The translations under genes and the position numbers were made by a program. From assembly GCA_025451045.1 (NCBI GenBank), contig JANWLD010000001.1, forward strand, positions 197,812 to 261,811: a stretch of DNA of 64,000 bases. Reading direction: 5' to 3'. Source of the DNA: Candidatus Saccharimonadales bacterium (lineage in GTDB: Bacteria > Patescibacteriota > Saccharimonadia > Saccharimonadales > 2-12-FULL-41-12). The notes beneath the pieces are model-generated. The model saw only the letters and a program-made list of their open reading frames with translations, was not told the origin of the DNA and ran no database searches. Positions 4,382 through 63,463 of this stretch are shown here, piece by piece (positions within the stretch are counted from its first letter, which is position 1; the number at the start of each line of letters is the position of its first letter).

Positions 4382-4389
4382 TTAACAAC

Positions 4390-4418: not shown

Positions 4419-4431
4419 GCAAAAGGCAAAT

Positions 4432-4463: not shown

Positions 4464-4478
4464 CTGAGCAGAGTTTTA

Positions 4479-4775: not shown

Positions 4776-4952
4776 TCTTTTAGTTCCTTCTATTACTTAA
4801 AACAATCGACCGAAAATCTACTCTATCTTCTTCGATCTGCAGTATTTTCCTGATTGACCTTATAAAAGGAACCTTAAATGAAAAAACTTTTTTATCTGAT
4901 CTAGAACATTTTTGAGATCTTGCAAGAGATATTAAAGCACACAATCAAGCTA

Positions 4953-4981
4953 TTGACAAATCAATGCCGTTTATGTATAAT
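4953..4981 (+). promoter_or_regulatory. consensus sigma70 promoter
   Basis: TTGACA (4953-4958), 17-nt spacer, TATAAT (4976-4981). Both hexamers match consensus perfectly. Confidence 0.7.
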
Positions 4982-5035
4982 GTTTTTTGTACTGACCTAA
5001 AACAAAAACACAATTTAAAAAAAGGAGCAGGCCAC

Positions 5036-8283: not shown

Positions 8284-8438
8284 TTTTAAAATTCCTTGCT
8301 TATAAATCTAATTATCCTCTTTTTAATTAATAACCTCAACATTAATGAGGCCAGAAAAAATTCTAACACTCCTAAGCGTAAGCTAGCGGCTTTTGCCATT
8401 AGCCAGTAAAAAATCAGAAAAAATATATAATTTATGAT

Positions 8439-11212: not shown

Positions 11213-11213
11213 A

Positions 11214-11240
11214 ATGAGAAACCCATTCTGGGTTTCTCAT
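11214..11240 (+). terminator. strong hairpin after ftsH (terminator-like, no clear U-tract)
   Basis: ATGAGAAACCC-attct-GGGTTTCTCAT, an 11-bp perfect stem starting 2 nt after the stop codon. Confidence 0.45.
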
Positions 11241-11343
11241 CGCGCGGCGCGCAGCAATAAATGCTGACGCTCCGGCTGCTCTTCCCAGTCTGTATGAATT
11301 TGGGTTAGAGTTTGTCCGCGACATTGAATATAATAAAGTGTAA

Positions 11344-12939
11344 ATGAGCAAAAATCGTTTTTTGACGCGTGCTAATAAACGCATATCGTTGAGCAGTGCA
11401 GCCACTTTATTGATAGTTACGACGCTAGCCGGCCAGATACTAGGCCTTTTCCGAACGAAATTGGTCAATGCCAACTTTCCACCCTATGGGCCGCAAAGCA
11501 CCGACGCTTACTTCGCTGCTTTCAAAATTCCGGATTTTTTCTATTTTACCTTAGCTGCCGGTGCGCTTGGCGTGGCCTTCATGCCGATTCTGGCCGACAA
11601 GCTGGCCAAAGGTGATAAAAAAGCGGTCTGGGAACTAAGCAACAGTTTACTTAACCTACTGGCAATGGTCATGATAGCCGTCGGGGTGATAATCCTTATC
11701 TTTGCCGAGCCGTTGATTCACTATGTGGTCGCTCCGAATATGACGCCGGAACAATTGCACAACGCCTCGACCATAATGCGGCTGATTGCTTTTAACCCTC
11801 TGTTCTTTACTATCTCGGCAATTTTTATGAGTGTTCAGCAGACTCTCGGCCGTTTCTTCTTCTATGCTTTCGCGCCGCTTTTGTACAACATCTCTATCAT
11901 AGCCAGTATATTCATATTCAGGGACAACCTTGGCTTAATCGGTTTGGGGATTGGCGCTTTGGTCGGTATAGTCCTGCAGGTATTGGTCGCGCTTTTAGGC
12001 TTTGTCGGTATGCGCTATCGTTACAACGCCAAAATAAAATGGCAGAACCCGGACTTTCGGTTGATACTGCGCCAATTGCCGCCGCGTTCAATCGATCAGG
12101 GAGTGGATTCACTGAACAGTATCGTAGAAACCAATTTTGCCCGGCGGCTAGGGGAAGGCAAGCTTAGCTTTTACGAAAACGCTAATGTTCTTCAGACCGC
12201 GCCGACGTTGCTTATTGGAACAACAATTTCCACCGCGGCTTTCCCGCGGCTTAATGACCGACTAGCCCAAGGCCGCAGCGATTTGTTCCGACGTGATTTC
12301 CTGCGGGTACTAAAGGTTATAGTTTGGATTATCATTCCGGTAGTAATCATATGTTATTTTGCCCGCGGCTACCTGGCTCGCTTGATTTTCAGCCGTAATG
12401 CTCCGGAAATAGCAGCTATTTTCGGTTTCTTTGCCGGCGCTATTTTATTTCGTACCATATATACGCTTATTTCCAGATGGTTCTATTCGCAGAAAGATAC
12501 AAAAACGCCGCTGTTTGTTTCACTTTTCGCGATAGTCTTAAACGTCTTTTTGGCTTACAAGCTATCACGGCCATCGGCTTATGACGTTTCCGGCTTGGCA
12601 TTAGCTCAATCCATAGTGGCGGCAGTCGAAGTAGCGATACTTTCATTTATAATGGTTATTCGCGATCACAAGCTCATCGATGCTTATTTCTGGAACGGGA
12701 TTTTCAGGATAATGGCGGCTACCGGTTTTACTATCGTCGCTGCTTATACCATGTTACAGATTTTCCCCCTTGAAGCATCCGATAAAGGATTTATCCAGCT
12801 GGGTACGAAACTGGTGGCCATATCGTTTGTTACTATGCTGGTTCATTTTCTCGCGTCACTCTTGTTCGGGGTTGAAGAGGCCAAGGTATTTATCGGCCGG
12901 GTTAAGCAAACTGTTATGTCTCCCATCCGCATCCAATAG
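11344..12939 (+). CDS. murJ: lipid II flippase MurJ/MviN
   Basis: 531-aa polytopic protein. The N-terminus (ILGLFRTKLVNANFP...TDAYFAAFKIPDFFY) is typical of MurJ. Confidence 0.9.
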   Translation: MSKNRFLTRANKRISLSSAATLLIVTTLAGQILGLFRTKLVNANFPPYGPQSTDAYFAAFKIPDFFYFTLAAGALGVAFMPILADKLAKGDKKAVWELSNSLLNLLAMVMIAVGVIILIFAEPLIHYVVAPNMTPEQLHNASTIMRLIAFNPLFFTISAIFMSVQQTLGRFFFYAFAPLLYNISIIASIFIFRDNLGLIGLGIGALVGIVLQVLVALLGFVGMRYRYNAKIKWQNPDFRLILRQLPPRSIDQGVDSLNSIVETNFARRLGEGKLSFYENANVLQTAPTLLIGTTISTAAFPRLNDRLAQGRSDLFRRDFLRVLKVIVWIIIPVVIICYFARGYLARLIFSRNAPEIAAIFGFFAGAILFRTIYTLISRWFYSQKDTKTPLFVSLFAIVLNVFLAYKLSRPSAYDVSGLALAQSIVAAVEVAILSFIMVIRDHKLIDAYFWNGIFRIMAATGFTIVAAYTMLQIFPLEASDKGFIQLGTKLVAISFVTMLVHFLASLLFGVEEAKVFIGRVKQTVMSPIRIQ

Positions 12940-39894: not shown

Positions 39895-40500
39895 GTGAAA
39901 ATTACCGATATAAAGCAACAGGTTAAACGTAAGGACCGTTATTCAATATTTATTGACGGTAAATACAGCTTTGCTTTAAGTGAAAGCGGACTTTTGAACT
40001 CAGGCCTTGCCATAGGCCAGGAGTTTTCTAAACAAGAACTTGAACGGCTGGAAAAAGTATCCGTCGAAGATAAGGCAGTTTACCGGGCGCTGGATTTGAT
40101 TGCCCGCCGGCCGAGGAGCGAAGGCGAGTTGCGGGACTATTTAAAGCGGAAAAAATATACGGACGAAGAGATTGTAAAAATACTTAACACGTTAAGTATA
40201 AAAGGCTATATCAATGACAAAGACTTTGCGCGGCGCTGGGTGGAAAGCCGCCGGCTGCTAAAACCTATCAGTATTAGGCGCTTAAGGTTGGAGTTAAGGC
40301 AAAAACGCGTCGCCGACGAAATAGTCAATGAAGCTTTAGAAAGCGACGAGACTAATGAGCCGGAAGTGCTCAAAGAATTAATCGAAAAAAAGCAAAAACA
40401 AACGAGGTATCGGGATAAACAAAAACTGACGCAGTTTTTATTGCGCCAAGGCTTTAACTATTCGGATATAAAATTAGCGTTGGAAGAAGCGGGTATCTAA
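39895..40500 (+). CDS. recX: recombination regulator RecX
   Basis: GTG start. Repeated three-helix pattern (ALDLIARRPRSEGELRDYLKRK..., LNTLSIKGYINDKDFARRWVESR) is typical of RecX. Confidence 0.88.
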   Translation: MKITDIKQQVKRKDRYSIFIDGKYSFALSESGLLNSGLAIGQEFSKQELERLEKVSVEDKAVYRALDLIARRPRSEGELRDYLKRKKYTDEEIVKILNTLSIKGYINDKDFARRWVESRRLLKPISIRRLRLELRQKRVADEIVNEALESDETNEPEVLKELIEKKQKQTRYRDKQKLTQFLLRQGFNYSDIKLALEEAGI

Positions 40501-41024
40501 GAATTTGCCGGGCTAGTCGCGGCTACGGTTTCGCCCGCTTTCTCAAGCGCATCCTCGATGATAATCCGATTATTGGTAATTTCCACTATTTGGGTACGGT
40601 CAATGCTGACATTTCCTCCGGACAGGCTTTTTATTATCGATTGGCCGGCATAGACTTTTTTAACCAGCAGACTTTCAGTTTCGACCGCGAAGTCTATGAC
40701 CTTTCCATATTTTTTACCGCTTTGGCTGATTACTTGTTTGCCAATTAGTTCAAAACCGATGTTTAGCACGGATTTTAAGCGCACAAGTTCCTCGGTTTCA
40801 GCCAAAACTTCGTGGTCATTGATGATTATGCCTTGGGCGGCTATATCGCGCACCTCGGCGCTTACCAGCACCATTTTCTTGCCGCTAAACCGATCCAGGA
40901 CATACCAACCTTCCACCTTTAGGTTGTTGGGATTGATAATCATAGTTGTGGCCGTCCCTACCGACCCGCCGGTGCGCAGGGACATCACTTGTGTGTTTAA
41001 AAGCGCATTGCTAAGCTTCAACAT
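40497..41024 (-). CDS. PRC-barrel domain protein (two repeats)
   Basis: LLNTQVMSLRTGGSVG...NLKVEGWYV, and a second repeat LIGKQVISQSGKKYGKVIDF. Confidence 0.75.
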   Translation of the reverse strand: MLKLSNALLNTQVMSLRTGGSVGTATTMIINPNNLKVEGWYVLDRFSGKKMVLVSAEVRDIAAQGIIINDHEVLAETEELVRLKSVLNIGFELIGKQVISQSGKKYGKVIDFAVETESLLVKKVYAGQSIIKSLSGGNVSIDRTQIVEITNNRIIIEDALEKAGETVAATSPANS

Positions 41025-41086
41025 ATCATTTTTAGTATACTTTATTGCTTATGCCTGCCCGAAACCTCTGTTTTATAATTATTACT

Positions 41087-41530
41087 ATGAATCAACTTAA
41101 GGTCACCTGTCCAAACGAAACTTCAACCATGAAAGTCGCCGAAAAGTTAGCCGGCCAACTTGCTAGTGGAGAATTAGTAGAGCTTGCTGGCGATGTCGGT
41201 TCGGGTAAAACCACGTTTGTTAAAGGGCTGGCCAAAGGCCTTGACAGTAATGACCGGGTTTCCAGCCCGTCTTTCGCATTAAAGAATATATATCATGGCC
41301 GTTTAAAGCTTTATCATTTTGACCTTTACCGTTTGAATGAAGCTGGGCTTATGGATCATGAAATAAAAGATTCGCTGGATGACAAAGACGCCGTTTCCGT
41401 CATCGAATGGGCTGGCGTAAGTTCCAATGTACTGCCAAAAACCAGGATAACCGTTAATTTCGAAATCATCGGCGAAAATTCAAGACAGCTGACTATCACA
41501 ATGCCTGATTTTAAGGAGCCGGAAAAATGA
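41087..41530 (+). CDS. tsaE: tRNA t6A37 biosynthesis ATPase TsaE
   Basis: GDVGSGKTTFVKGLAKGL, SPSFAL, HFDLYRL. ATG at 41087 fits the family N-terminus (the track start 41045 is probably too early). Confidence 0.88.
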   Translation: MNQLKVTCPNETSTMKVAEKLAGQLASGELVELAGDVGSGKTTFVKGLAKGLDSNDRVSSPSFALKNIYHGRLKLYHFDLYRLNEAGLMDHEIKDSLDDKDAVSVIEWAGVSSNVLPKTRITVNFEIIGENSRQLTITMPDFKEPEK

Positions 41531-49320: not shown

Positions 49321-50826
49321 TTAACCCAGGCTTTTTCGCAGCAATGCGGCTTCGACGATTTTGTCAGTCAATTCTTTACCGCTTCGGTTAATTATCTCTG
49401 AAGTAACTTCGCAATGTTTTTGCTCGTCAGTCGTCTTTGGGCCAATTTTTATACCTAAAATTTCTTGTACCAAAACGACGTCTTGTTTTACTTCTTCCCA
49501 CGCCGGGTTACGTTCTATTAGGCCATCTAAGTTAACGTTATTGAAATAACCCCCGGCTCTTTCAAGGTCAATTTTAAGCAGTTTGTAATGTTTGGACACC
49601 AATTCCAATTCATCTTTGTCGAGTTCTTTTAAAATCCGCCCGGCGGCAATAAATTCGGGCGGTATACCCAAGGAATAAAAACCTGCCGTAAAAGTAATAG
49701 CCCGTGGCATTTTCTGCGCTCCAAGTTTGCGTCCATAAGCTAGCAAGCCGATATGTTGCCGGCGTTCACGTCTTTTCGGTACTGCCGCGAAAATGTTTTT
49801 TAAGTCAGGAGCTATAGAAGTTAATGTTGCTTGATAAATTTGTTCGGCACGTTTGCTTATCTGGATTAACTTTTCTTCTTCGGCTTTCTCCAAGATAACA
49901 GGACTAGTCTTTGACAGGTTTTCTTCCAGCTTTTTGATAGCGGCCTTAACTTCAGACAAAGGATTGTCATAGCGGAACGACGACTGGACGGTAACAGTTC
50001 GCATGCCCGGATGCTCATTGATGTAATCATCAACAGTTGCCGGACTTAAGCCGCCACGGAAGGGCAGGCTGCCAACGCCGGAAATAGGGAAAACAGGAAT
50101 CTTACTCCCAGCCGAAAACTTATAGGCCTGTGACAAAGCAATCTTATTCGTAAGTACCGTGGCGAACATACCCGAAACCAACGCCGGGTCGGACCGGGCA
50201 AAGAACGGGCGGATATATTCGGGGTTCTTGTCGAAATGCTCGTTGTATTTGGCCGTGTATTTCTCAAGCAACCCGCCGGTAAGTTGCTGGCTCTGCACGC
50301 TCTCAACCAGCGGTATAAGCTCTATAAAATTTTGGTTGTCAGGGGCATCGTTAGTAAACTCTTTGGATTTAAAGTTAGCCAGCTTTTCAAATAATAAATG
50401 CATTTTCATCAACTGGTCGGAGGTTTCGGTCATCGGCAAGATAACTTCAAACAGCGGACGTTTTAAAAATCCGAGGTCGTGAGCGAAATCCTCGGCAGTT
50501 AATATAACCGTCATAGCCTGAAGCAGACTGTAACCTTTCTCTTCCCAGATGTTAGGCAAGCGGAAGGTCAGGAATTTATCTCGGTTGAGCTGGTGGTCCT
50601 TGAAATATTCATAGTGTTCGCTGAACAGCTTGTCGATAACTGCCGCGTCGGCATGCTTGCCCTCCCAATCCCACATATATTCGGAAACGCCTAGCTGTTC
50701 AAAGCAAATTACCGCCTCATCAATTTCTTTATAAACCGAAACAAACGGATTTTTTTGTTTGTCCCAAAAGGGCGCTGAGGCATTGTCCGGGTGTTGGGTG
50801 GCCATAGTCGCCGGAATCTTCCTCAT
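49321..50826 (-). CDS. pepcA: archaeal-type phosphoenolpyruvate carboxylase (PepcA)
   Basis: KIPATMATQHPDN N-terminus, ARSDPALVSG, GVGSLPFRGG, MPRAITFTAGFYSLGIPPEF, and a C-terminal ...KSLG. All are collinear with my recollection of archaeal-type PEPC; 501 aa. Confidence 0.88.
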   Translation of the reverse strand: MRKIPATMATQHPDNASAPFWDKQKNPFVSVYKEIDEAVICFEQLGVSEYMWDWEGKHADAAVIDKLFSEHYEYFKDHQLNRDKFLTFRLPNIWEEKGYSLLQAMTVILTAEDFAHDLGFLKRPLFEVILPMTETSDQLMKMHLLFEKLANFKSKEFTNDAPDNQNFIELIPLVESVQSQQLTGGLLEKYTAKYNEHFDKNPEYIRPFFARSDPALVSGMFATVLTNKIALSQAYKFSAGSKIPVFPISGVGSLPFRGGLSPATVDDYINEHPGMRTVTVQSSFRYDNPLSEVKAAIKKLEENLSKTSPVILEKAEEEKLIQISKRAEQIYQATLTSIAPDLKNIFAAVPKRRERRQHIGLLAYGRKLGAQKMPRAITFTAGFYSLGIPPEFIAAGRILKELDKDELELVSKHYKLLKIDLERAGGYFNNVNLDGLIERNPAWEEVKQDVVLVQEILGIKIGPKTTDEQKHCEVTSEIINRSGKELTDKIVEAALLRKSLG

Positions 50827-53025: not shown

Positions 53026-53082
53026 ATGTAAAACAGAGGTAATTATAATCAATAATCCCTTGTGTTACAATCAAATATAAGC

Positions 53083-54312
53083 ATGATACTTACGGCCAAA
53101 CATTTAATCGAAAAAGCCGGAAAGCATCTGGGACTCAGCCAACAAGAAATAGATTACATTCTGAAAATCGACCACGAGCACGTTTTTGACATTGTTTTGG
53201 ACAACGGCAGTACCCATAAGGCCTATCGTGTCCAGCACAACAATTCGCGCGGGCCATATAAAGGCGGTATCCGTTTTCACCCGCAAGTTGATTTGAACGA
53301 AGTTCGGGCCCTGTCGATTCTAATGAGTTTGAAAACTGCCGCTGTCGGTTTGCCGCTGGGCGGCGGTAAAGGCGGCGTAGCTATTGATCCCCGAAGTTTG
53401 TCTGAAACCGAATTGGAGCAATTGTCCCGGGCATATGTAGGGCACTTACATCCGCATATAGGCCCGGATACCGACATACCTGCGCCTGACGTGAACATCA
53501 ATTCGCAAATAATTGATTGGATGGTGGATGAATATGAAACAATAACCGGTGATAAATCCAAAGCCAGCTTTACCGGCAAATCAATCGGTAAAGGAGGCAG
53601 TTTCGGACGTGAGGCCGCCACCGGCCGCGGCGGCATGATAGCCATCGGCGAGTATCTGAAACTTGCTGGGAAAAACCCTAGTGAAATGACTTTTGCGATT
53701 CAAGGCGTCGGTAATGTAGGCGCGTTTTTTACTAAACTGGCGGAAACAGAGCTTAGGGCGCGTATAGTTGCAGTATCTGATTCACAAAGAACGCTTGTCG
53801 TTAAGGATTTTAGCAACAATAAGGATTTTATAAGTCTTGAAGGTCTTAAAAATCGGCGCAAAGGCCTGATTGATGATTTGGCTAATTCCCATGTTGAATT
53901 TTTGGATAGAGACGCAATATTAGAACTCCCGGTTGATGTTTTAGTCCTGGCCGCTTTGGGCGACACCGTAGTTAAAGGCAATGCCAATATGGTTAAAGCA
54001 CCTATTATCCTAGAACTGGCTAACGGACCAATTGATGAAGATGGGTTCGATACTTTAACTGCTAAGGGCACTGTAATCATTCCTGATATTGTTGCGAATG
54101 CCGGCGGTGTTATTGTCAGTCATCTCGAATGGCTGCAGAACAAAGCAGGCGAAAGCTGGAGTGAAGAACAAGTCAATGAAAAGCTGGCTGAATATATGGT
54201 TGCGGCAACCCGAGAAATCTACGAATACGGAAAAGAGCATAATATCCCGCTGAAACAAGCCGCCTTGGCCTTGGCTATGAAGCGTTTGCTTGAATCCAAA
54301 AAAGCTAAATGA
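53083..54312 (+). CDS. gdhA: glutamate dehydrogenase (Glu/Leu/Phe/Val dehydrogenase family)
   Basis: GPYKGGIRFHP and the catalytic-Lys motif LPLGGGKGG. ATG at 53083, 11 nt after an extended -10 TGTTACAAT. Confidence 0.93.
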   Translation: MILTAKHLIEKAGKHLGLSQQEIDYILKIDHEHVFDIVLDNGSTHKAYRVQHNNSRGPYKGGIRFHPQVDLNEVRALSILMSLKTAAVGLPLGGGKGGVAIDPRSLSETELEQLSRAYVGHLHPHIGPDTDIPAPDVNINSQIIDWMVDEYETITGDKSKASFTGKSIGKGGSFGREAATGRGGMIAIGEYLKLAGKNPSEMTFAIQGVGNVGAFFTKLAETELRARIVAVSDSQRTLVVKDFSNNKDFISLEGLKNRRKGLIDDLANSHVEFLDRDAILELPVDVLVLAALGDTVVKGNANMVKAPIILELANGPIDEDGFDTLTAKGTVIIPDIVANAGGVIVSHLEWLQNKAGESWSEEQVNEKLAEYMVAATREIYEYGKEHNIPLKQAALALAMKRLLESKKAK

Positions 54313-54361: not shown

Positions 54362-54385
54362 ATGAGAGGGGTAAACCCCTCTCAT
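54362..54385. terminator. bidirectional hairpin terminator between convergent gdh and HTH-murA
   Basis: ATGAGAGGGG-taaa-CCCCTCTCAT, a 10-bp perfect stem. Confidence 0.65.
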
Positions 54386-54397: not shown

Positions 54398-55918
54398 CTA
54401 TATATCGTGAATAATCTCGATTTTGGCACCAAGTTTGTTTAAGCGCTCAGCCAGATATTCGTAGCCGCGATTAATAGAGTAGACATTTCGCAGAATTGAA
54501 ACGCCATCAGCCGCCAGCATGCCGATTAAAAGCAGCACCGCCGGCCGCAGGGCTGGTGGACAGATTATATCGTCAACATGCCATTTAGTCGGCCCGTCGA
54601 TATAAGCTCGGTGCGGGTCAGCTAAGGTTATATTAACGCCGAGTTTGCGAAGCTCGGTATAATAAAGCGCCCGTTCTTCATAAACCCAGTCGTGGATTAA
54701 CGTACGTCCTTTGGCTACGGCGGCAATCGGCACGAAGTAGGGTAGGTTATCAATATTCAGCCCCGGATAAGGTCTTCCGTAAATCTTTTCATCCAGAGCT
54801 TTTAGCTCACCATTATGCTTATGGACCGTGATGTCAGCCAGCAGGCTGTGGCCATTGTTGGCTTTATAGTGCTTGCTGATGTCAACTTTCAAGCCCATTT
54901 TTTCCATTTTTAAAAGCTCAAGCTCCAAAAACTCAATTGGCGCTCGTTTGACAGTCAGCTCTGAGTTGGTAGCCACCGCGGCGGCAACGAAAGTCATTGA
55001 TTCTATCGGATCCTCCGTAGGGTAGTAAGTTATGTTGCGGCGAGCTTCTTTTACCCCGCGGATTTTAAGCGTGCTGGTACCGATACCTTCGATTTTTACC
55101 CCAAGTTTTTTGAGGAAGAAACACAAGTCTTGGACCTGATAATTGGCGCTGGCCATCTTGATTATTACTTCTTTTTCCTGATAAGCTGCGGCCATAATGG
55201 CATTTTCAGTCGTAGTGTCGCCGGATTCGTACATGATGACGTATTCAGGCTGTTTTTTCTTTACGGTTACGTGATAATTTCCAGATTTGGTCAGTACCTC
55301 GACACCAAATTCCTCCAATGCGTAAAGATGTGGTTGCACGGTTCTCTTGCCTAGTTTGCATCCGCCGGCATAGGGGATGTTGAATTCTTTGAACAGATGC
55401 ATTAGCGGACCAAGCATCATGATTACACTGCGCGTACGCCGTGCCGCGTTCTTGTCCATCTTGTCCAGCTGAAGTTTTTCTGGCGGCCGGATTTCGAGGT
55501 CGTTGCCGCCCATCCAGCGAACCTTCACCCCAATGCTGATAAGTACTTCAATCAGCCGGTTAACTTCTTCAATCCTCGGCATTTTCTTAAGCCTTGTAGT
55601 GCCTTTATTTAGCAAAGAAGCAAAAAGCAGACATACCGCTGAGTTTTTCGCTACGCGTGTTTCGATTGATCCGGACAGTTCGTGTCCGCCTTCAATTCTC
55701 AGGTTTACCGCATCACCGCCAAGACTGATTATTTGCTTGTTAAGTACATCGCTGATACGACCCAGAGTATCCAAGCTCAAGTTCTGCCGGCCTTTTTCAA
55801 TACGGTTTATTGCACTCTGTGAGGTGCCAAGCCTGCGGGCAAACTCGGCTTGCGTTAAACCTCTTTCTTGTCTGATTTGGTAAATTAATTGCCCGATTTT
55901 CTCGTTAGTATTGGCCAT
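54398..55918 (-). CDS. murA: XRE-family HTH domain fused to UDP-N-acetylglucosamine 1-carboxyvinyltransferase (MurA)
   Basis: Residues 1-65 are a Cro/C1 HTH (RGLTQAEFARRLGTSQSAINRIEKGRQN). The remainder has the MurA fold with VAKNSAV, AGGCKLGKRT, NIDNLPYF and YSINRGYEYLAERL. Confidence 0.85.
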   Translation of the reverse strand: MANTNEKIGQLIYQIRQERGLTQAEFARRLGTSQSAINRIEKGRQNLSLDTLGRISDVLNKQIISLGGDAVNLRIEGGHELSGSIETRVAKNSAVCLLFASLLNKGTTRLKKMPRIEEVNRLIEVLISIGVKVRWMGGNDLEIRPPEKLQLDKMDKNAARRTRSVIMMLGPLMHLFKEFNIPYAGGCKLGKRTVQPHLYALEEFGVEVLTKSGNYHVTVKKKQPEYVIMYESGDTTTENAIMAAAYQEKEVIIKMASANYQVQDLCFFLKKLGVKIEGIGTSTLKIRGVKEARRNITYYPTEDPIESMTFVAAAVATNSELTVKRAPIEFLELELLKMEKMGLKVDISKHYKANNGHSLLADITVHKHNGELKALDEKIYGRPYPGLNIDNLPYFVPIAAVAKGRTLIHDWVYEERALYYTELRKLGVNITLADPHRAYIDGPTKWHVDDIICPPALRPAVLLLIGMLAADGVSILRNVYSINRGYEYLAERLNKLGAKIEIIHDI

Positions 55919-56095
55919 ACTGCAATAAAAATATCATAAAAGGTGTCAAAACGAAAGAGAGGAATTTGTAAAACAAACCTAGAATATTACAGAAAATTGG
56001 GAAAGCCGCCCGGGTATAGTTATAATGAAAACCATGATATAGCTGCGTTAACCACTTTGTATTTTTATCAAGTGAACGTAGTTAGGAGTAGATTT

Positions 56096-57361
56096 ATGAA
56101 AGATAAGAAAATTGCCGAATTGATTTTGGCAGAACGAAAACGTCAATCGGAAGGCTTGGAGATGATTCCAAGTGAAAACCATGCCTCAAAGGATGTTTTA
56201 ACGGCTCTGGGAAGCGTGCTAACGGATAAATACTCCGAAGGCTATCCCGGTATGCGCTACTACGGCGGCTGTGAAGTCGTTGACCAGGTTGAAAATCTGG
56301 CGCGGGACAGGGCAAAGAAGCTGTTTGGCGTCAATCATGCCAATGTGCAAGGCTATTCCGGTTCGCCGGCCAACCAAGCTGTTTATTACGCCCTACTTAA
56401 TCCGGGTGACAAGGTCATGGGTCTCAAGCTTTATTTCGGCGGGCACATGACGCATGGTTTGAAAGTCAACTTCTCCGGTACTATCTACGACTCCGTACAG
56501 TATGAAACCGGCAAAGACGGCTATTTGGATTATGACGCGATGATGAAACAAGCCAAATTTGAGCAGCCAAAGATGATAGTCGTCGGCGCGACGGCTTATC
56601 CGCGGATTTATGACTGGAAAAAATTGCGCAAAATCGCCGATGAAGTAAATGCTTGGCTGCTGGCTGATATATCGCACATCGCCGGCTTGGTCGTGGGAGG
56701 CGTTCATCCGTCACCGGCGGGGATAGCCGATGTTATTATGACCACCACCCACAAGACACTACGCGGTCCAAGAGGCGCGCTAATTTTGTGTAATGGCAAT
56801 CCTTCCACTCCGCTGAAAAAAGCTGAAAGGACCAAGGAAAATCTACCAACCTTGATTGACCGGGCGATAATTCCCGGCCTTCAGGGCGGCCCGCATAACC
56901 ACCAGACGGCGGCTATTGCCGTGGCGTTGGGCGAAGCTTCTCAGCCAGATTTTAAGACGTACGCCGCCCAAATTGTGAGAAACGCTAAGAAACTAGCTTC
57001 AGAACTGTCAGATCGCGGCTACAACTTAGTAACTGGCGGCACGGATAACCATTTGTTGCTGATTGACCTAACCAACAAAAAAGTGACCGGCAAGGAAGCC
57101 GAAGACGCATTAGGCAATGCTGGAATTACTGTTAATAAAAATACCGTGCCATTTGACCCGCGGCCGCCGTTCAGCCCTAGCGGCATTCGTTTGGGCACGC
57201 CGGCTTTGACTAGCCGCGGACTGAAGGAAGATCATATGGTACAAGTAGCGCAGTGGATAGACGAAGCCATAACCAACAGGAATAACACTGAAAAGCTTGG
57301 CGAGTTAGGAAAACAGATTAAAAAGTTCGCAAGCAGTTTTCCACTACCCAGCGATAGATAG
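56096..57361 (+). CDS. glyA: serine hydroxymethyltransferase
   Basis: LEMIPSENHAS and TTTHKTLRGPRG (PLP Lys). ATG at 56096 with AGGAG 8 nt upstream; the track start 55943 lies in the promoter region. Confidence 0.96.
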   Translation: MKDKKIAELILAERKRQSEGLEMIPSENHASKDVLTALGSVLTDKYSEGYPGMRYYGGCEVVDQVENLARDRAKKLFGVNHANVQGYSGSPANQAVYYALLNPGDKVMGLKLYFGGHMTHGLKVNFSGTIYDSVQYETGKDGYLDYDAMMKQAKFEQPKMIVVGATAYPRIYDWKKLRKIADEVNAWLLADISHIAGLVVGGVHPSPAGIADVIMTTTHKTLRGPRGALILCNGNPSTPLKKAERTKENLPTLIDRAIIPGLQGGPHNHQTAAIAVALGEASQPDFKTYAAQIVRNAKKLASELSDRGYNLVTGGTDNHLLLIDLTNKKVTGKEAEDALGNAGITVNKNTVPFDPRPPFSPSGIRLGTPALTSRGLKEDHMVQVAQWIDEAITNRNNTEKLGELGKQIKKFASSFPLPSDR

Positions 57362-57475
57362 AATTAAAAAATATTATTTTCCGCTTGCGTTTTTATATGC
57401 ATGGGTATATAAATTAGCTTTAGAGTAACGATTTAAGATAAAAACCCATCGTTGCAAATAAACAGGGAAATAAAA

Positions 57476-57961
57476 ATGGGCGCATACAAATCCCCAATTC
57501 CAACCTTTAGAGCCGACCGGTTCGAGTTAGGAAGTCGCCGCGCGATGATGGAAACGCTATTGCCCATGCATCACAATCGGATGCCGTCGGAAGACCAGAA
57601 GGACCGAGCTCTATGGGCGGTTGAAGGACTACTGATTCCCGGGCGCGAAGACACACGAAGATTGCTTGCGATAAATATTGATGATGTAGATATTCCTGAT
57701 CCGGTCGATCCGGAAGAGACGATAACCATTGAAGGGGAAGACATCGCCGGTATGCTGGCCTCGGCCCGCTATGGTCGCATTACGGCAGAATTTCCAGACT
57801 TGGAAAGCTTGGATGACAACGTAGTTCGCATCGTACTACCCCAAGAAGCAAAACTGCCCCTATATGCGGCAGGTGTTGAAAAGATGCAAGAGACTTTTGC
57901 ATCTATTGGCGGCGTGGCCAGCTTAGGTGCTGAAGCTGTACCAATGCCGGCCGCGGCTTAG
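57476..57961 (+). CDS. hypothetical acidic protein, 161 aa
   Basis: ATG with an AGGGA-type SD. No TM and no recognisable domain. Its 3' end overlaps the convergent murB by 4 nt. Confidence 0.55.
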   Translation: MGAYKSPIPTFRADRFELGSRRAMMETLLPMHHNRMPSEDQKDRALWAVEGLLIPGREDTRRLLAINIDDVDIPDPVDPEETITIEGEDIAGMLASARYGRITAEFPDLESLDDNVVRIVLPQEAKLPLYAAGVEKMQETFASIGGVASLGAEAVPMPAAA

Positions 57962-58989
57962 ATTAATTCCGGTTCTTGCTTGAGCGTAACACCGAACTTT
58001 TGTTCGGCTTTTTTGATTATTGCGTCGCGAAAGGCTAATAATGACATGGTATTCGGCGCTTTTTCATTAACAAATACCAGAGAGTGCTTATCCCAGATGG
58101 CCATACCGGTATTTGGCTCGTGGTAGCCTTTCAGCCCCATTTGTTCCAGCATCCAGGCGGCAGAAAGCTTAACGTTGCTGCCATCAACGTCCCAATGCGG
58201 CAAACCGGGATATTTATCTACCAATTCCTGCAACCTAGCATTGTCTACTATCGGGTTAGCAAAGAATGAACCGCAGTTTGCTACTTTGCCCGGGTCAGGC
58301 AACTTGCTGTTTCGTATATCAATCACCGCTTTGCGGATAACTGCTGGCGTATAAGCTGTTATCTTGTGCTCGCTCAGATAAGCTTGAAGCGTCCCGTAAA
58401 ACGGCGGCATTGGCGGGTTTTTAGTTACTGCAAGAGTTATTGAAGTTATCAAAAACCGGCCCTTGTCCTGACTGTTAAAGCGGCTCTTGCGGTAGGAAAA
58501 ACCGCACTCTATCTTTGGAATGACCTTCATCTGTTTTTCAATAGTGTCATAGGCTTCGACACAGACCAGCGTGTCAGCAATTTCCTTGCCATAAGCCCCG
58601 ACATTCTGCACCGGCGTAGCTCCGGTCGTACCGGGGATCAAAGACAATTGTTCGACGCCAGATAAACCTGCCTCAACTATCCGGGCAACCGCGCTATCCC
58701 AATTTTCACCAGCCCCGATATTGATAAATGACTCGAACTCCTGCTCCTGGATTTCAAATCCCATTATCTTATTGACCAGCACCAGTCCGTCGAAACCTTG
58801 GTCGTTCCAGATTATATTACTGCCGTCGCCAATCATAATAATCTTGCACTTCTGTTCATCAGCCCACTCAAGAGCAGGCCTTATCTGTTCCGACTTGGTT
58901 ATTTCCAACAAATATTTGGCCGGGCCACCCAGCCGCATAGTCGAATGTTGGCTTAACGGCACGTTCTGTAAGGGGCTAACGGGCTCCAT
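57958..58989 (-). CDS. murB: UDP-N-acetylenolpyruvoylglucosamine reductase MurB
   Basis: FAD-binding domain (MRLGGPAKYLLE, MIGDGSNIIW), MurB C-terminal domain (SAAWMLEQMGLKG). ATG at 58989; the track start 59007 uses a non-standard codon. Confidence 0.92.
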   Translation of the reverse strand: MEPVSPLQNVPLSQHSTMRLGGPAKYLLEITKSEQIRPALEWADEQKCKIIMIGDGSNIIWNDQGFDGLVLVNKIMGFEIQEQEFESFINIGAGENWDSAVARIVEAGLSGVEQLSLIPGTTGATPVQNVGAYGKEIADTLVCVEAYDTIEKQMKVIPKIECGFSYRKSRFNSQDKGRFLITSITLAVTKNPPMPPFYGTLQAYLSEHKITAYTPAVIRKAVIDIRNSKLPDPGKVANCGSFFANPIVDNARLQELVDKYPGLPHWDVDGSNVKLSAAWMLEQMGLKGYHEPNTGMAIWDKHSLVFVNEKAPNTMSLLAFRDAIIKKAEQKFGVTLKQEPELI

Positions 58990-59063
58990 AACACTTAAGT
59001 ATATCAATAGTGTGCATCATAAACCTGCTTGCATCGAAAAAAACATAGGAGTAACATAAAATC

Positions 59064-59609
59064 ATGGCAAAAAACAAAGATGAGCCGTATAAGGCTCTCG
59101 GCGCAAAAATCAAACACTTAAGAAAACAATGGCACCAAAGCTTAGGTGAAGTTTCCGGCACTCTTGAAATAGACGAGAAAATTCTAAAAGAAATCGAATC
59201 TGGCAAGACTTTGCCGCCGGAAAATATCATGAATATGCTTATCAACCATTTTTTGCTTACTGATGACCAGGCGGATGAACTTAGAGGCCTTGCAACGATT
59301 CAGCGCGAACAAGCGACAGAAGCACTGGTTAACGGTCTTGAAGATATGATAATGAAACAGATAGTTATGTATCTGCCGGTTGAAAACAAGGTCGTTTATA
59401 CAGACAGTATGAACGCTATTGTTAACAAGCATGGCGTGGTACTTCAGTTTCTGCAAAATTCAGCGGACAACGGCTCCAAACCTATTACCGTTAGCCAAGT
59501 TGGTATGAGCCGAGAGCACGCCGAAAAAGTCATAGAAGTACTGACCAAAACGCTCAAAGAACACGATCAAAATCAGAAGCAAAAACTTCTGCCCGATAAA
59601 ACAAATTAG
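59064..59609 (+). CDS. XRE-like HTH domain protein, 181 aa
   Basis: LGAKIKHLRKQWHQSLGEVSGTLEIDEKILKEIESGKTLP resembles a Cro/C1 HTH; the C-terminal part is unknown. Divergent from murB. Confidence 0.65.
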   Translation: MAKNKDEPYKALGAKIKHLRKQWHQSLGEVSGTLEIDEKILKEIESGKTLPPENIMNMLINHFLLTDDQADELRGLATIQREQATEALVNGLEDMIMKQIVMYLPVENKVVYTDSMNAIVNKHGVVLQFLQNSADNGSKPITVSQVGMSREHAEKVIEVLTKTLKEHDQNQKQKLLPDKTN

Positions 59610-59665
59610 AGGTGTAAAAATAGTTAAAACAGGGTATAATCCAATCTGTTAATTCTTTTAAGTTT

Positions 59666-59742
59666 GCCCGCGTAGCTCAGCGGATTAGAGCACTGGTCTT
59701 CGGAACCAGGTGTCGGCGGTTCGAATCCGTCCGCGGGTACCA
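59666..59742 (+). tRNA. tRNA-Arg (TCG)
   Basis: Acceptor GCCCGCG/CGCGGGT, anticodon arm CTGGT-CTTCGGA-ACCAG, T arm GGCGG-TTCGAAT-CCGTC, discriminator A, CCA. Confidence 0.93.
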
Positions 59743-59822
59743 CTAACACTTTATTATTATCTAGATTTAATTTGTAAACAATAATACTATTAAATAGATA
59801 ACAAACATAAGCGGACAATCAT

Positions 59823-60323
59823 ATGGAAAACCAAACAATTACACCAAGCCAAAACAGCCAAACCCAACCGGCACCTCAGCCTTCATTATCAAATACTCCG
59901 CCAGAACTACCAGCAAATCCTATCCCAGCTCCTGTAGCGGATTGGAGCACGGGATCCCAGCCCTCAAATGGAAATTTTGGCCGCTTATCTTTACTGTTCA
60001 GCTCGCTTGCGGTCGGAATCTTCATCTTACTTATCTTTGCCACCGGTCTTGTTGACTCGCTATCCAAAGCCTATATATGGTTTTTTATCATTTTAGCTTT
60101 AGGCATTGCCGGGCTGGTACTGGGGTTAATCTCGGAAAAAGGCAAAGACAAGATCAATTTGCTTGGCTTGGTAGGGATAGTTGTTTCAATAATAGTTTGT
60201 ATCAATTGTTTAATCATCGGCTCATATTACATAAAGCTTCAAATGACTCTAAATAGTTTTAAATCCCAATATAACACTTCTAGTTCCTCTGGTGCCTTAG
60301 AGTCGACTTACAGCACACAGTAA
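59823..60323 (+). CDS. membrane protein with Pro/Gln-rich N-terminus
   Basis: 166 aa; about 55 aa of P/Q/S-rich sequence followed by 3 TM helices. Confidence 0.6.
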   Translation: MENQTITPSQNSQTQPAPQPSLSNTPPELPANPIPAPVADWSTGSQPSNGNFGRLSLLFSSLAVGIFILLIFATGLVDSLSKAYIWFFIILALGIAGLVLGLISEKGKDKINLLGLVGIVVSIIVCINCLIIGSYYIKLQMTLNSFKSQYNTSSSSGALESTYSTQ

Positions 60324-60364
60324 ATTAAACTGAGTTATATTGTACTGGCGAAGAAATCTTTAAA

Positions 60365-61588
60365 ATGAAGACATTTACTCAAGTAAATCGTGCCGTTGAT
60401 AATTTTGTCGTCGCTTTAGACAGGTCTGCCAGTTATTCTTTGGATAGAATCAAAGATTTGATGGATGAACTGGGGAACCCGCAGGATAACTTTAAGACGG
60501 TTCATATTGCCGGCACTAGCGGCAAGACTTCAACGGCGTATTATGTAGCGGCTATGCTGGAAACTGCCGGGTACAGAACAGGCCTAAGCGTCTCGCCTTA
60601 CGTCGAAGAAGTAAATGAAAGGGTCCAAATAGGCACCAAACCCCTGTCGGAGCCTATTTTTTGCCAGCAGTTCAGCGAATTCTTCAAAATAGTTAAACGC
60701 CTCAGTATTAAACCGACTTATTTTGAACTGTTCGTTGCTTTCGCTTATTGGTATTTTGCCAAAATAAAAGTCGATTACGCAGTAATCGAAGTTGGTTTGG
60801 GCGGCCTGCTGGACGGCACGAATGTAATAGAGCGGCCGGATAAAATATGTGTCATCACTGATATCGGTGTTGACCATACCCATATTTTAGGTAGTACCAT
60901 TAGTGAAATTACCCGGCAAAAAGCCGGTATTATTAAGAACCACAACCCGGTGTTTATGTACCACCAAAATGAAGAGGTGGAACAAGAGATATTCAAGCAA
61001 GCTTTTAGCGAACACGCAGCCGTACATTACGTTAAGCCGCCCAAGCTTTCCGGGTTTGTGCGCCGAAACTGGAATTTAGCAAAAAATGTCTGCGAGTATA
61101 TTTTTAGCAAAGACGAGCGCAAAAATTTGACCGAAGCACAATGGGAAAAAATCGCAGAGATAACCATACCCGGCCGGCTTGAAATATTGAAATTCAAAGG
61201 CAAAACTATTGTCTTGGACGGGGCGCATAATTCACAAAAGATAAGTTCACTAGCTGAAAGTTTCAAAAAGAAATATATAGGCGCAAAGGTCGCAATACTT
61301 TTTGCAATTGGTGAAAATAAAAGCGAGCATCTGCAAGCCATGGCCGATGAGCTTAACAACTTGTCTGATTTTGTAATCGCAACTAATTTTTATAAGGATT
61401 CACAGGTTGAGAAATCATCTGTTGAGCCAGAAATAATCGCTCGGTATTTTGATAAGCAAAAACTATTGATAGAACCGGACCTTAAAAAAGCCGCACAGGC
61501 TTTGCTTAAAAGAAAAGAAGACGTGCTTTTGGTAACCGGTTCACTTTATCTGGTCGGCGCTGTCAAAAAGATACTTAAACAACGTTGA
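60365..61588 (+). CDS. folC: folylpolyglutamate synthase / dihydrofolate synthase (Mur ligase family)
   Basis: P-loop VHIAGTSGKTST, EVGLGGLLDGTN, DGAHN. Confidence 0.9.
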   Translation: MKTFTQVNRAVDNFVVALDRSASYSLDRIKDLMDELGNPQDNFKTVHIAGTSGKTSTAYYVAAMLETAGYRTGLSVSPYVEEVNERVQIGTKPLSEPIFCQQFSEFFKIVKRLSIKPTYFELFVAFAYWYFAKIKVDYAVIEVGLGGLLDGTNVIERPDKICVITDIGVDHTHILGSTISEITRQKAGIIKNHNPVFMYHQNEEVEQEIFKQAFSEHAAVHYVKPPKLSGFVRRNWNLAKNVCEYIFSKDERKNLTEAQWEKIAEITIPGRLEILKFKGKTIVLDGAHNSQKISSLAESFKKKYIGAKVAILFAIGENKSEHLQAMADELNNLSDFVIATNFYKDSQVEKSSVEPEIIARYFDKQKLLIEPDLKKAAQALLKRKEDVLLVTGSLYLVGAVKKILKQR

Positions 61589-62078
61589 TTATTTCCTTTT
61601 CGGTAATAATAGTTTGAATTTTTCGGTCGTGTGGTTCGTCAGGGATTTTGTCAATCTCCGAAAAGCTATAAGCTAGCCCGATAGTCTGTTTGCATCTGTT
61701 TTTTGCTAGAAACTTATCGTAATATCCACCGCCATAACCAAGCCGGTAACCGCGCCGGTCGAAGCCGACGACAGGTAATATTACCAAATCATAGACGTTT
61801 CCTTCGGGTATTGTTGGCATCGCTTTTTTCGGGGCTATTTCAATCTGAATATTGGGATAATTCTCTCTAAGAAAACCTATTAGTTTTTTAGTATCAACTT
61901 CATTATGTTCCTTGATTGGCAGATAGATATGGAGTTTATCGATTTCCTGCCAACTTATATATTTACTTAACGTGTTAAGTATTTTTTCCGAATATTTATC
62001 AACTTCTATCGTACTAAGCTTGAGTTTCTTCTCCATCAAGCTTTTCCTTAACATTTTTTTCTCATCAAAGGCTGTCAT
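61575..62078 (-). CDS. 5-formyltetrahydrofolate cyclo-ligase
   Basis: LPVVGFDRRGYRLGYGGGYYDKFL motif; 167 aa; overlaps the folC 3' end by 14 nt (convergent). Confidence 0.88.
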   Translation of the reverse strand: MTAFDEKKMLRKSLMEKKLKLSTIEVDKYSEKILNTLSKYISWQEIDKLHIYLPIKEHNEVDTKKLIGFLRENYPNIQIEIAPKKAMPTIPEGNVYDLVILPVVGFDRRGYRLGYGGGYYDKFLAKNRCKQTIGLAYSFSEIDKIPDEPHDRKIQTIITEKEIINVV

Positions 62079-62088
62079 ACAAAATGCT

Positions 62089-62165
62089 TGGAGGGCCAGG
62101 AGGGACTCGAACCCTCGACACCCTGCTTAAGAGGCAGGTGCTCTAACCAGCTGAGCTACTGGCCC
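62089..62165 (-). tRNA. tRNA-Lys (CTT)
   Basis: Acceptor GGGCCAG/CTGGCCC, anticodon arm CCTGC-CTCTTAA-GCAGG, T arm GAGGG-TTCGAGT-CCCTC, CCA. Confidence 0.95.
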
Positions 62166-62189
62166 ATAAAGCCAATGTCTTGGCTTTAT
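62166..62189 (-). other. perfect hairpin abutting the 5' end of tRNA-Lys(CTT), downstream of folA
   Basis: ATAAAGCCAA-tgtc-TTGGCTTTAT, a 10-bp stem. Could be a terminator or a processing element. Confidence 0.4.
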
Positions 62190-62277
62190 GTAGCCACGAA
62201 CGAAGTGTCATTCGTGATAAACAGTATAGGCTTACATGCGCCAACCACAAATACTTGAACTTGCATAGCATAGCAAA

Positions 62278-62751
62278 TCACTTCTTACGTTTCCAGTTTT
62301 CGTAGTGAAATGTGGTGCCGTTTTCGGTCATCGGCTCAGACTTGCTGACTAGCTCGAAGTCCTTTTCATATGGCGGGAAGAATTTGGTGCAGTTGAAGTC
62401 CGCATGGACCAATGTAAAGACCAGCTCATCGGCAAACTGCAAAGTGGAAGTAAACAGTCCCGCGCCGCCGATGTTATTGATAATTTCACCTTCATGCTCT
62501 TTTAAAAAAGCCGGAATATCAATCACCAGCTCAAAGCCGGGCTTTAGCTTCTTATTGCTGCGGCTGGTTACGTAATTAGGCGTCTGGTGCATCGGTTTCT
62601 TGAATTCTAGATATGTAGCGTAACCCATCAAAATAACCCCGTTTTTTGTTTGGTCGACAAAGTATTTCCTATCGGTCGGTAAGTCCCACGGAATGCCTCC
62701 ATCATCAGCTATTCCGCGTTTTTCATCAATTGCGGCCACGAAACGTATCAT
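62278..62751 (-). CDS. folA: dihydrofolate reductase family protein
   Basis: MIRFVAAIDEKRGIADDGGIPWDLPTDRKYF...ILMGYATY pattern. ATG at 62751 (the track CTG start at 62787 is unlikely). Confidence 0.8.
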   Translation of the reverse strand: MIRFVAAIDEKRGIADDGGIPWDLPTDRKYFVDQTKNGVILMGYATYLEFKKPMHQTPNYVTSRSNKKLKPGFELVIDIPAFLKEHEGEIINNIGGAGLFTSTLQFADELVFTLVHADFNCTKFFPPYEKDFELVSKSEPMTENGTTFHYENWKRKK

Positions 62752-62806
62752 AAAACCAGCATAGACCAACGCTGCATATACCTGCAAGAAACATAATGCT
62801 TATGTC

Positions 62807-62835
62807 TTGATTTATTATAAAAAATAGTATATAAT
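62807..62835 (+). promoter_or_regulatory. sigma70-type promoter positioned for a leaderless transcript
   Basis: TTGATT (62807-62812), 17-nt spacer, TATAAT (62830-62835), then 7 nt to the ATG at 62843. No SD. Confidence 0.55.
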
Positions 62836-62842
62836 TAAAATT

Positions 62843-63463
62843 ATGTTAGTAAATGGCGAGGGTGGCGGAGAAAAGATCAGATCACACATACCTAAATGGT
62901 TAAGAAGAACTGATGTGAAGCCTAAAAAACCAGTTTCGGAAGGGAACACTGAAAAGATTACCCAAGCCAATAAAGAATTAATCCAGCATCTTAAGGCTTC
63001 CAAAGGCACAGCTCCGGAACTTTTACTTGGGCAAACTACTGGTAAACTTGCACTAAACTTTCTTGTCGATATGTCATCGCGCGGTATGCCGGGGGCTGAA
63101 GAAATCTCCATAGGCAAGAATGAATACACAAAAGCTTATATGATAGGCGTCACAGAGTTAAGTGGTCTGCGCACGAATACGGACGAAAGAGGAGAATATT
63201 ATACGGTGTTTGGCGCAAAGGTTTATGCGTGTGAAGACGGACAATTACGCGCGCCAGTTAAAGAAAGTTACGAAAACCATGCTTTTGAACCTTTTTCTTT
63301 CCCCTTTGAGCCGGATCTCCATTCTGACGTGGTCCAGGGCGATTTTGCCAGTGGCCGCATAGAAGCAAGTACTGAAAATGGAAAAGAACGGTTCTATCCC
63401 GTGCCATTAGAGGAAATCCTAGGAAGCATAGCCGCTAATCATTTTTCCGAAGGACTTCAATAG
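62843..63463 (+). CDS. hypothetical protein, 206 aa
   Basis: ATG ORF with no TM, signal peptide or recognisable domain. Its stop TAG is immediately followed by the next ATG. Confidence 0.6.
   Translation: MLVNGEGGGEKIRSHIPKWLRRTDVKPKKPVSEGNTEKITQANKELIQHLKASKGTAPELLLGQTTGKLALNFLVDMSSRGMPGAEEISIGKNEYTKAYMIGVTELSGLRTNTDERGEYYTVFGAKVYACEDGQLRAPVKESYENHAFEPFSFPFEPDLHSDVVQGDFASGRIEASTENGKERFYPVPLEEILGSIAANHFSEGLQ

Follow-up and report, generated by a model that had tools for sequence, protein, structure and literature searches.

Why would the first committed enzyme of peptidoglycan synthesis carry a DNA-binding domain? The question is raised by a gene located on the reverse strand, at positions 54398-55918, of a 64,000-nucleotide stretch of contig JANWLD010000001.1 from a Candidatus Saccharimonadales bacterium (this whole stretch is referred to as the window, and its own numbering is used throughout). 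The gene encodes, in one polypeptide, a helix-turn-helix (HTH) domain and a catalytic domain with intact residues that corresponds to MurA, the UDP-N-acetylglucosamine (UDP-GlcNAc) 1-carboxyvinyltransferase. An earlier, sequence-only reading of this DNA suggested that such an architecture could serve autoregulation, and comparative genomics lends strong support to that suggestion, given that a conserved palindrome lies on the promoter of the fusion gene itself. From the analyses described here we conclude that the protein is probably bifunctional, an active MurA that also acts as the autorepressor of its own gene.

MurA, whose co-substrate is phosphoenolpyruvate (PEP), is the gatekeeper of the peptidoglycan pathway and the target of fosfomycin, and it is known to be feedback-inhibited by UDP-N-acetylmuramic acid (UDP-MurNAc). 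In Firmicutes, the enzyme is also controlled by ReoM/ClpCP-dependent proteolysis (PMC7286690). A MurA that represses its own gene would add a third and much simpler kind of control, one that suits the genome-reduced Patescibacteria with their few regulators. In the literature searched there was no report of a self-repressing MurA, no description of an HTH-MurA fusion, and, among the antitoxin papers, nothing relevant to the palindrome. This goes along with an annotation gap: every source labels the fusion proteins as plain MurA, and so are labelled their catalytically dead relatives, where these are named at all.

A single reading frame joins an HTH domain to MurA

According to the listing of open reading frames (ORFs), the fusion gene has an ATG start, 506 codons and a TAG stop. 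The protein begins with MANTNEKIGQLIYQIRQERGLTQAEFARRLGTSQSAINRIEKGRQN and can be divided in an HTH domain of the XRE/Cro-C1 type (residues 1-62; 55733-55918), delimited by a Pfam match and an AlphaFold2 model, a flexible linker (residues 63-72; 55703-55732), recognized by low model confidence and low pairwise identity, and the MurA body (residues 73-506; 54401-55702), supported by profiles, residues and structure matches. Pfam finds HTH_3 at residues 12-62 (E 7e-17, 61.6 bits against a cut-off of 23) and EPSP_synthase (PF00275) at residues 76-493 (E 2e-44), so that the N-terminal segment passes the HTH models. ATG, GTG or TTG occur in frame only at codons 1, 47, 49, 102, 113 and 131; since none of them lies between the HTH and Lys91, an internal start could not give an HTH-less enzyme that keeps this lysine. 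The in-frame fusion in one ATG-started ORF, the lack of a start codon ahead of the MurA lysine and the 177-bp gap toward glyA (whose ATG is at 56096) were thus correctly described by the sequence-only reading, with the sequence as it was quoted.

The same reading had allowed for a frameshift or an assembly error that joined two genes, i.e. a small xre gene and murA. The probability of such an artefact is next to nil: the junction has neither a stop nor a start codon, the identical architecture is present in hundreds of independent assemblies (NCBI, JGI, ENA and Logan), and the HTH was found as a separate neighbouring gene in none of 17 loci carrying an HTH-less murA. This last result, obtained by tblastn with the HTH, also rules out an unfused xre-murA arrangement as the visible precursor in these loci.

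The architecture turned out to be common. All of the best 120 clusters (77-100% identity to the window protein, whose own database cluster is labelled Candidatus Saccharimonadales) carry HTH and MurA in about 506 residues, and an exhaustive profile-free search of 1.8 billion cluster representatives brought up fusions of full length at identities as low as 32%. The fused HTH together with an intact KNRCRDRR signature was found in at least 227 members of the collected set of 327 full-length homologues. Genome loci with the fusion belong to Saccharibacteria, Taylorbacteria and Harrisonbacteria, and more distant members are named Paceibacterota, Liptonbacteria or 'Patescibacteria group'. The fusion is shared by more than 200 clusters from Patescibacteria; of the earlier concern that it might be already common and characterized, the first half holds, but not the second, as far as the literature searched is concerned. 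The closest HTH-less MurAs (from Paceibacteria, Magasanikbacteria and Nomurabacteria) are 48-58% identical and start right at the MurA core. A neighbour-joining tree lacked the resolution needed to tell how often the HTH was gained or lost.

The MurA part keeps the fold and the catalytic residues

The window protein was aligned with E. coli MurA, using a reference identical to PDB 1uae at 419 of 419 positions. Despite an identity of only about 26-27%, the window protein has each of the eight catalytic or PEP-binding residues that were checked: K22 (K91 in the window protein), N23 (N92), R91, C115 (C187), R120, D305 (D390), R371 (R458) and R397 (R484). The loop around C187 reads GGCKLGKRT. The only residue that differs is D369, replaced by Pro or Ala according to the alignment, and this Asp is also missing from the unfused Patescibacteria MurAs of the same clade. 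The earlier claim of intact MurA residues is in agreement with this alignment, D369 being the sole difference, and by these criteria the MurA part is to be regarded as catalytically intact.

Family profiles gave a mixed result. The score for PRK09369, an NCBIfam MurA subfamily, was 328.1 bits, above its cut-off of 297, whereas those for the murA equivalog TIGR01072 (312.6 against 392.7) and for PRK12830 (224.8 against 552) fell below. The best sequence matches in the PDB are all MurA (5ujs, E 9e-51). An AlphaFold2 model of the fusion protein, built on 47 family members, had a mean predicted local distance difference test (pLDDT) of 89 and a predicted template modelling score of 0.83, and in its MurA body only the Cys loop (187-190) is floppy. 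The model superimposes on solved MurA structures with template modelling (TM) scores of 0.90-0.93, the latter value being obtained for 1uae and 6q03; none of the solved structures that it matched has an appended HTH. Judged by its fold, its residues and one curated threshold, the protein is a member of the MurA family, within a divergent Patescibacteria clade.

The HTH is the best-conserved segment of the fusion

In the AlphaFold2 model the N-terminal domain has helices at residues 2-18, 23-30, 34-41 and 49-59, the recognition helix being that at 34-41 (TSQSAINRIE), and on the basis of the profiles this region is assigned to the XRE/Cro-C1 HTH family. Among 47 fusions, down to 38% identity, 13 positions are invariant (R16, T22, Q23, A27, T32, Q34, S35, A36, R39, E41, G43, Q45 and N46), and they fall in or around the recognition helix. 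Pairwise identity averages 61.5% for the HTH, 57.4% for MurA and 33% for the linker, whose pLDDT is about 50 (below 50 at residues 65-68) and which the model renders as disordered at residues 60-71. By these figures, the HTH is conserved as well as the enzyme and is the best-conserved segment of the fusion. Nonsynonymous divergence (dN) in the HTH is 0.007-0.12 and synonymous sites are saturated, for which reason most pairs have no dN/dS ratio; these values indicate that purifying selection acts on the HTH as well as on the MurA part.

A palindrome accompanies the fused HTH

An alignment of the 300 nt ahead of the fusion gene, in the window and in 17 genome loci, revealed an inverted repeat just before the ATG of the fusion genes, with the 16-bp consensus ATAYCA-N4-TGRTAT. 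In the window this candidate operator lies at 55931-55946 on the reverse strand; on the gene strand it reads ACACCT-ttta-TGATAT, a 10/12 match that ends 12 nt before the ATG. The palindrome is present in 23 of 23 fusion promoters and in none of the 17 loci with an HTH-less murA. A match of at least 10/12 within 70 nt upstream was found in all 21 fusion loci scored and, again, in none of the 17; 2.1% of random 70-nt windows contain such a match (Mann-Whitney p = 5e-8). Of these 21 loci, 12 have a site that ends exactly 12 nt ahead of the ATG. Perfect 12/12 sites are present in five loci that were retrieved only once the motif was known (L036, L039, L040, L041 and L042). Two others, L014 and L027, carry symmetric substitutions by which the dyad is kept (ATAGCA/TGCTAT in the former, TTACCA/TGGTAA in the latter).

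The exact motif occurs ten times in 40 loci, eight of them directly upstream of a fusion gene. The other two (L021 413-428 and L026 485-500) were ruled out as operators, given that they form, as GTATACCA-gaaa-TGGTATAC followed by a T-run, an intrinsic terminator located after dnaJ and before a gene for an extracytoplasmic function sigma factor; terminators that match the operator pattern exactly call for caution in motif scans.

The sequence-only reading had pointed to a different inverted repeat in the same intergenic region, TTTGTAAAACAAA (TTTGT-aaa-ACAAA, 55965-55977). It is indeed present in the window, but it is not conserved, since even L001 and L004, the nearest relatives, lack it at the corresponding position; as an operator it was ruled out. 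What is conserved is the palindrome at 55931-55946, nearer to the gene by 20 bp. No Rfam RNA element matched the murA/glyA intergenic region at E <= 1.

Architecture of the fusion promoter

The right half of the palindrome coincides with a promoter element. In the window, a TG-extended -10 box at 55928-55936 (reverse strand; TG at 55935-55936, hexamer TATTTT at 55928-55933) overlaps the right operator half. A profile of the 23 fusion promoters, with positions counted along the aligned operator, shows a TTG resembling a -35 (positions -10 to -8), a spacer of 17 nt, the TG (+10/+11), the -10 hexamer (+13 to +18), an enrichment of A at +25 (14 of 23 loci) and the ATG at +28. Conservation of the -10 region is strong: G+11, T+13 and A+14 are found in 23/23 loci and T+18 in 18/23; in the 23-promoter logo there is zero information upstream of position -10, and hence none at the place of the 55965-55977 repeat. 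The extended -10 could be seen only through the multi-locus alignment, and a scan with the sigma-70 consensus missed the murA promoter because it has no good -35. From the -10 geometry and the A+25 enrichment, the transcription start is predicted at the A in position 55921, which would leave a leader of 3 nt (55919-55921, reverse strand). The fusion gene has no Shine-Dalgarno sequence; glyA, on the opposite side, has AGGAG. We propose that the extended -10 promoter produces an essentially leaderless mRNA. Promoters and operators are almost unknown in Patescibacteria, and this promoter model (-35 TTG, 17-nt spacer, TG-extended -10 and leaderless start), together with the predicted operator and a protein-DNA pair that can be tested, may be useful for the emerging genetics of Saccharibacteria.

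This overlap gives rise to a different explanation, namely that the HTH is an evolutionary passenger, or serves only for protein-protein contacts, and that the palindrome is simply the promoter of a leaderless gene. It would account for the right half, which is the extended -10 box, and for an 11/12 match found at the tilS-ftsH promoter (8425-8440), which resembles an ordinary promoter of the TATAAT kind. The left half is what it does not explain. This half lies in the promoter spacer, where C+4 is nevertheless kept in 22 of 23 loci, and it is absent from HTH-less murA loci and from control promoters: among the latter, those with TGRTAT never have a left half of 5/6 or better, except for the same sites when read from the divergent side, the L021/L026 hairpins and one 5/6 match in L032. 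Ordinary promoters leave the spacer unconserved, which suggests that the palindrome is more than a -10 box. The symmetric substitutions that keep the dyad, the purifying selection on the HTH, its status as the best-conserved segment, its persistence after the loss of catalysis and the presence of the same palindrome beside a related HTH in unrelated operons (both described below) also speak against the passenger explanation, which we consider unlikely.

Catalytically dead relatives retain the HTH and the operator

In eleven full-length HTH-'MurA' proteins (P0128, P0131, P0140, P0144, P0150, P0168, P0193, P0271, P0272, P0364 and P0379), R91, R120, R371 and R397 are gone together with the entire Cys115 loop, and in some of them K22 as well. 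These proteins keep N23, H125, the E160-T164 segment and D305-N306, residues which we take to line the UDP-sugar side of the MurA pocket, and in the alignments their HTH is conserved as in the active proteins. The genes of three loci were placed at 9975-11477 (L036), 10001-11518 (L039) and 3498-5003 (L040). In L036/L037/L038, L039 and L040 the dead gene is divergent from an operon in which a separate, unfused murA with intact catalytic residues is accompanied by Mur ligases, and by murB in L036-L039; ddl and/or Mur-ligase genes lie downstream of the dead gene. A perfect operator is located in the short shared intergenic region of these loci, 10-47 nt from the divergent start.

The MurA encoded next to the dead members is 22-28% identical to both types of fusion and is of the canonical kind typical of WWE3, Collierbacteria and similar groups, in lineages that are Microgenomates-like; it therefore represents a distinct lineage and not a recent duplication. 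It appears, from these residues and gene orders, that catalysis is supplied there by another MurA and that the HTH-'MurA' persists as a local regulator. Given that the dead members keep both HTH and operator, the DNA-binding function would have been selected independently of catalysis and in connection with mur genes, and we regard this branch as the strongest indirect evidence for a selected DNA-binding role of the HTH in this family. The three states together would make up an evolutionary series, from enzyme to enzyme-regulator to pure regulator, the last one being found beside mur operons.

On the other hand, the dead branch invites the view that the window protein is itself mainly a transcription factor with a MurA-fold sensor, the bulk of MurA catalysis being provided by another gene elsewhere. 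The co-occurrence of clearly non-catalytic relatives with a separate canonical MurA fits this view, and so does the TIGR01072 score below cut-off. We think it unlikely for the window protein. The eight residues are intact there, as they are in 227 other fusions, and the divergent features recur in unfused MurAs of that clade. A second murA was found neither in the 64 kb of the window nor next to the catalytic fusions of L041 and L042, the stretches that this search covered. Moreover, the canonical MurA found beside the degenerate copies is Microgenomates-like, with no Saccharimonadales name among its best 120 relatives.

A possible origin in Gp49/XRE toxin-antitoxin operons

In an unbiased reverse test, metagenome contigs were scanned for the perfect 16-mer ATATCATATATGATAT, which gave at least 120 occurrences. 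Among the matches listed, seven sites are 3-63 nt upstream of HTH-MurA genes (L053, L080, L090, L113, L115, L143 and L154), and about 12 others are linked to small XRE proteins (L047, L059, L065, L088, L097, L098, L107, L111, L112, L136, L139 and L142) that have a C-terminal HTH with 40-53% identity to the fused one. In the XRE-linked loci examined, a Gp49 (PF05973) toxin gene lies between the site and the XRE gene, and the promoter layout is the same as in the fusion promoters, TTGACA-N2-ATATCATATATGATAT. Both the fused HTH and the Gp49-partner HTH have their best match in TIGR03070, the Y4mF-family antitoxin, below cut-off; the window protein scored 51.1 bits in full and 56.9 for the HTH alone, against 71.65.

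Type II antitoxins repress their own genes by binding to palindromes in the promoters, and this points to a joint capture of HTH and operator from such a module. We consider a Gp49/XRE toxin-antitoxin module the most likely source of the HTH and of its promoter-operator cassette, so that a mobile autoregulatory module would have been domesticated for housekeeping control. The fusion resembles the Gp49/HigB-type XRE antitoxins, with their HigA2-like layout, in its related HTH, with the recognition helix GT(S/T)QS..ARIE.G.QN, and in the identical promoter-operator cassette. In contrast, it has no toxin partner and no toxin-neutralising N-terminal extension, and its HTH is N-terminal and fused to an enzyme. 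No toxin gene (Gp49/HigB/RelE) lies beside the window fusion, whose neighbours are gdh (convergent) and glyA (divergent), and since the gene starts 12 nt after the operator there is no room for a toxin ORF. Without such a partner, and with a score below cut-off, the window protein is not an antitoxin of a toxin-antitoxin system.

The same data raise the question of which protein would bind the palindrome. Because the 16-mer also serves toxin-antitoxin operons with a related HTH, another XRE protein of the same genome, e.g. a Gp49-partner antitoxin, might bind it in trans. Nonetheless, the palindrome follows the fused HTH in cis through genomes and gene neighbourhoods that differ widely and is missing whenever murA lacks the HTH, and the window contains neither a toxin-antitoxin module nor a second similar HTH. 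Binding in trans is thus very unlikely as the explanation of the site.

Proposed mechanism and points against it

For the bifunctional protein that we favour, the following mechanism is proposed. Two HTHs, acting as a dimer, would bind the 16-bp palindrome, whose half-site centres are 10 bp apart, i.e. one helical turn. The bound pair would cover the spacer and the TG-extended -10 box and exclude RNA polymerase, and the concentration of MurA protein would in this way set the rate of murA transcription, a direct negative autoregulation. Where promoter regions are shared, HTH-MurA could also act on the divergent promoters of murB, mreB or mur operons. More speculatively, the open or closed state of MurA, with UDP-GlcNAc or the UDP-MurNAc/PEP adduct bound, might modulate DNA binding. 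The solved structures matched by the model include a UDP-GlcNAc-bound form and UDP-MurNAc/PEP-adduct forms, among them the 'dormant' complexes 3swd and 3su9. Ligand control of DNA binding is plausible, and the dead branch, which kept residues of the UDP-sugar side and lost those of the PEP side, provides an indirect hint of it.

A broader reading would make the MurA fold the effector-sensing domain of an unrecognized family of one-component regulators. The protein of Saccharibacteria and Paceibacteria would then both make enolpyruvyl-UDP-GlcNAc and report UDP-GlcNAc, UDP-MurNAc or PEP to its own promoter, by way of the opening and closing of the two MurA lobes, and that of the Microgenomates-like lineages would be a dead, UDP-sugar-sensing repressor of divergent mur operons. 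We put forward this reading, in all of its three parts, tentatively, as a possibility rather than a probability. If true, it would represent a direct feedback from metabolite to transcription for peptidoglycan precursors, built from a domesticated toxin-antitoxin HTH/operator cassette.

Several observations weigh against autorepression. Few of the 23 loci have a left half as weak as that of the window site, ACACCT (3/6 when compared strictly with ATATCA), and repression may accordingly be weak in this genome; each of its substitutions recurs in other loci. Because the right half falls on the -10 box, promoter function has to account for part of its conservation. Some of the loci on which the motif was evaluated had also served to derive it, a circularity mitigated by the five loci fetched later. 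MurA is usually monomeric, so dimerization must come from the HTH or from the DNA. Finally, a search for a wider regulon, which covered 434 kb of loci plus the window at 11/12 or better and, for cell-wall genes, at least 120 operator-bearing metagenome loci, found no further operators at other cell-wall genes in the available flanks and no convincing sites in trans; the regulon may therefore be restricted to the local promoter.

Two 11/12 matches were recorded in the window. One of them, ATATAAtttaTGATAT at 8425-8440, lies directly against the start codon (ATG) of a tilS-like PP-loop gene (8439-9317), with ftsH (9341-11212) next in line. It may be either a further site of binding or the TATAAT promoter of a leaderless gene, and it has the appearance of an ordinary AT-rich -10 region. 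The other, ATATCAttttTAGTAT at 41023-41038, is located in the 20-bp gap between a rimM-like PRC-barrel gene (40497-41024, reverse strand) and tsaE (41045-41530, forward strand), and also looks like an ordinary AT-rich -10 region.

Comparison with known systems

Enzymes that double as regulators are covered by the 'trigger enzyme' concept, which reportedly goes back to Commichau & Stulke in 2008. To our knowledge, a transcription factor with an effector domain of the EPSP-synthase fold has not been reported. Transcription factors derived from enzymes that lose catalysis include MocR/GabR (from aminotransferases) and the ROK repressors (from sugar kinases); the dead HTH-'MurA' branch is comparable, having lost catalytic residues and kept HTH and operator, although this likeness concerns the relatives and not the window protein.

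The closest parallel to the bifunctional reading is the group II biotin protein ligase BirA, where an N-terminal HTH is joined to an enzyme that represses the bio operon, in a class that includes PutA, NadR and archaeal RbkR (PMC4016012, PMC5397151). As in BirA, the operator, here predicted, is palindromic and placed at promoters of the protein's own pathway, and kin without the DNA-binding domain exist (group I biotin protein ligases in one case, unfused Patescibacteria MurAs in the other). The differences are that HTH-MurA is an enolpyruvyl transferase of the EPSP-synthase fold with an XRE/Cro-C1 HTH, whereas the HTH of BirA is a winged helix; that the main predicted target of HTH-MurA is its own gene; and that control of DNA binding by ligand, a key property of BirA, is only plausible here. 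With canonical MurA (E. coli and Enterobacter cloacae; 1uae) the window protein shares the fold (TM 0.93), the catalytic residues and the flexible Cys loop. It differs in the additional 72 residues of HTH and linker and in the replacement of D369, and also in its proposed control, which would be transcriptional and self-contained, unlike the proteolytic or allosteric control known for MurA.

Genomic neighbourhood

In the window, the fusion gene is followed, beyond the divergent intergenic region, by glyA (56096-57361), a 169-residue ORF (57452-57961), murB (57958-59007, reverse strand), two ORFs, a Mur ligase gene (60365-61588), and the genes for 5-formyltetrahydrofolate cyclo-ligase (61575-62078, reverse strand) and dihydrofolate reductase (62278-62787, reverse strand). 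The murB and Mur ligase genes associate the fusion with other mur genes, and over 55943-63463 cell-wall genes are interleaved with one-carbon genes. The association takes other forms elsewhere: in L115 and L143 the fusion is divergent from murB and shares the operator region with it, and in L053 the operator and the fusion head a murA-murB-Mur ligase operon. The divergent partner is glyA in Saccharibacteria and mreB in Paceibacterota/Liptonbacteria, where mreB is consistently divergent from the catalytic HTH-MurA gene, in L041 (6619-7683), L042 (6855-7862) and L154.

On the other side, gdh (53062-54312) is convergent with the fusion gene. Between them, 13 nt after the murA stop, a stem-loop was read from the sequence at 54362-54385 (reverse strand, ATGAGAGGGG-ttta-CCCCTCTCAT), with a perfect 10-bp stem and a 4-nt loop; it is probably a bidirectional terminator that lacks a T-run, and the consensus terminator scan did not call it. 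Farther away, at 49321-50826 on the reverse strand, an archaeal-type PEP carboxylase gene (PF14010, PEPcase_2, E 3e-126) adjoins an aminotransferase gene. Among the homologues collected, a 1204-residue protein (P0204) has a MurA-like region at 755-1198 and represents a different and much larger MurA fusion.

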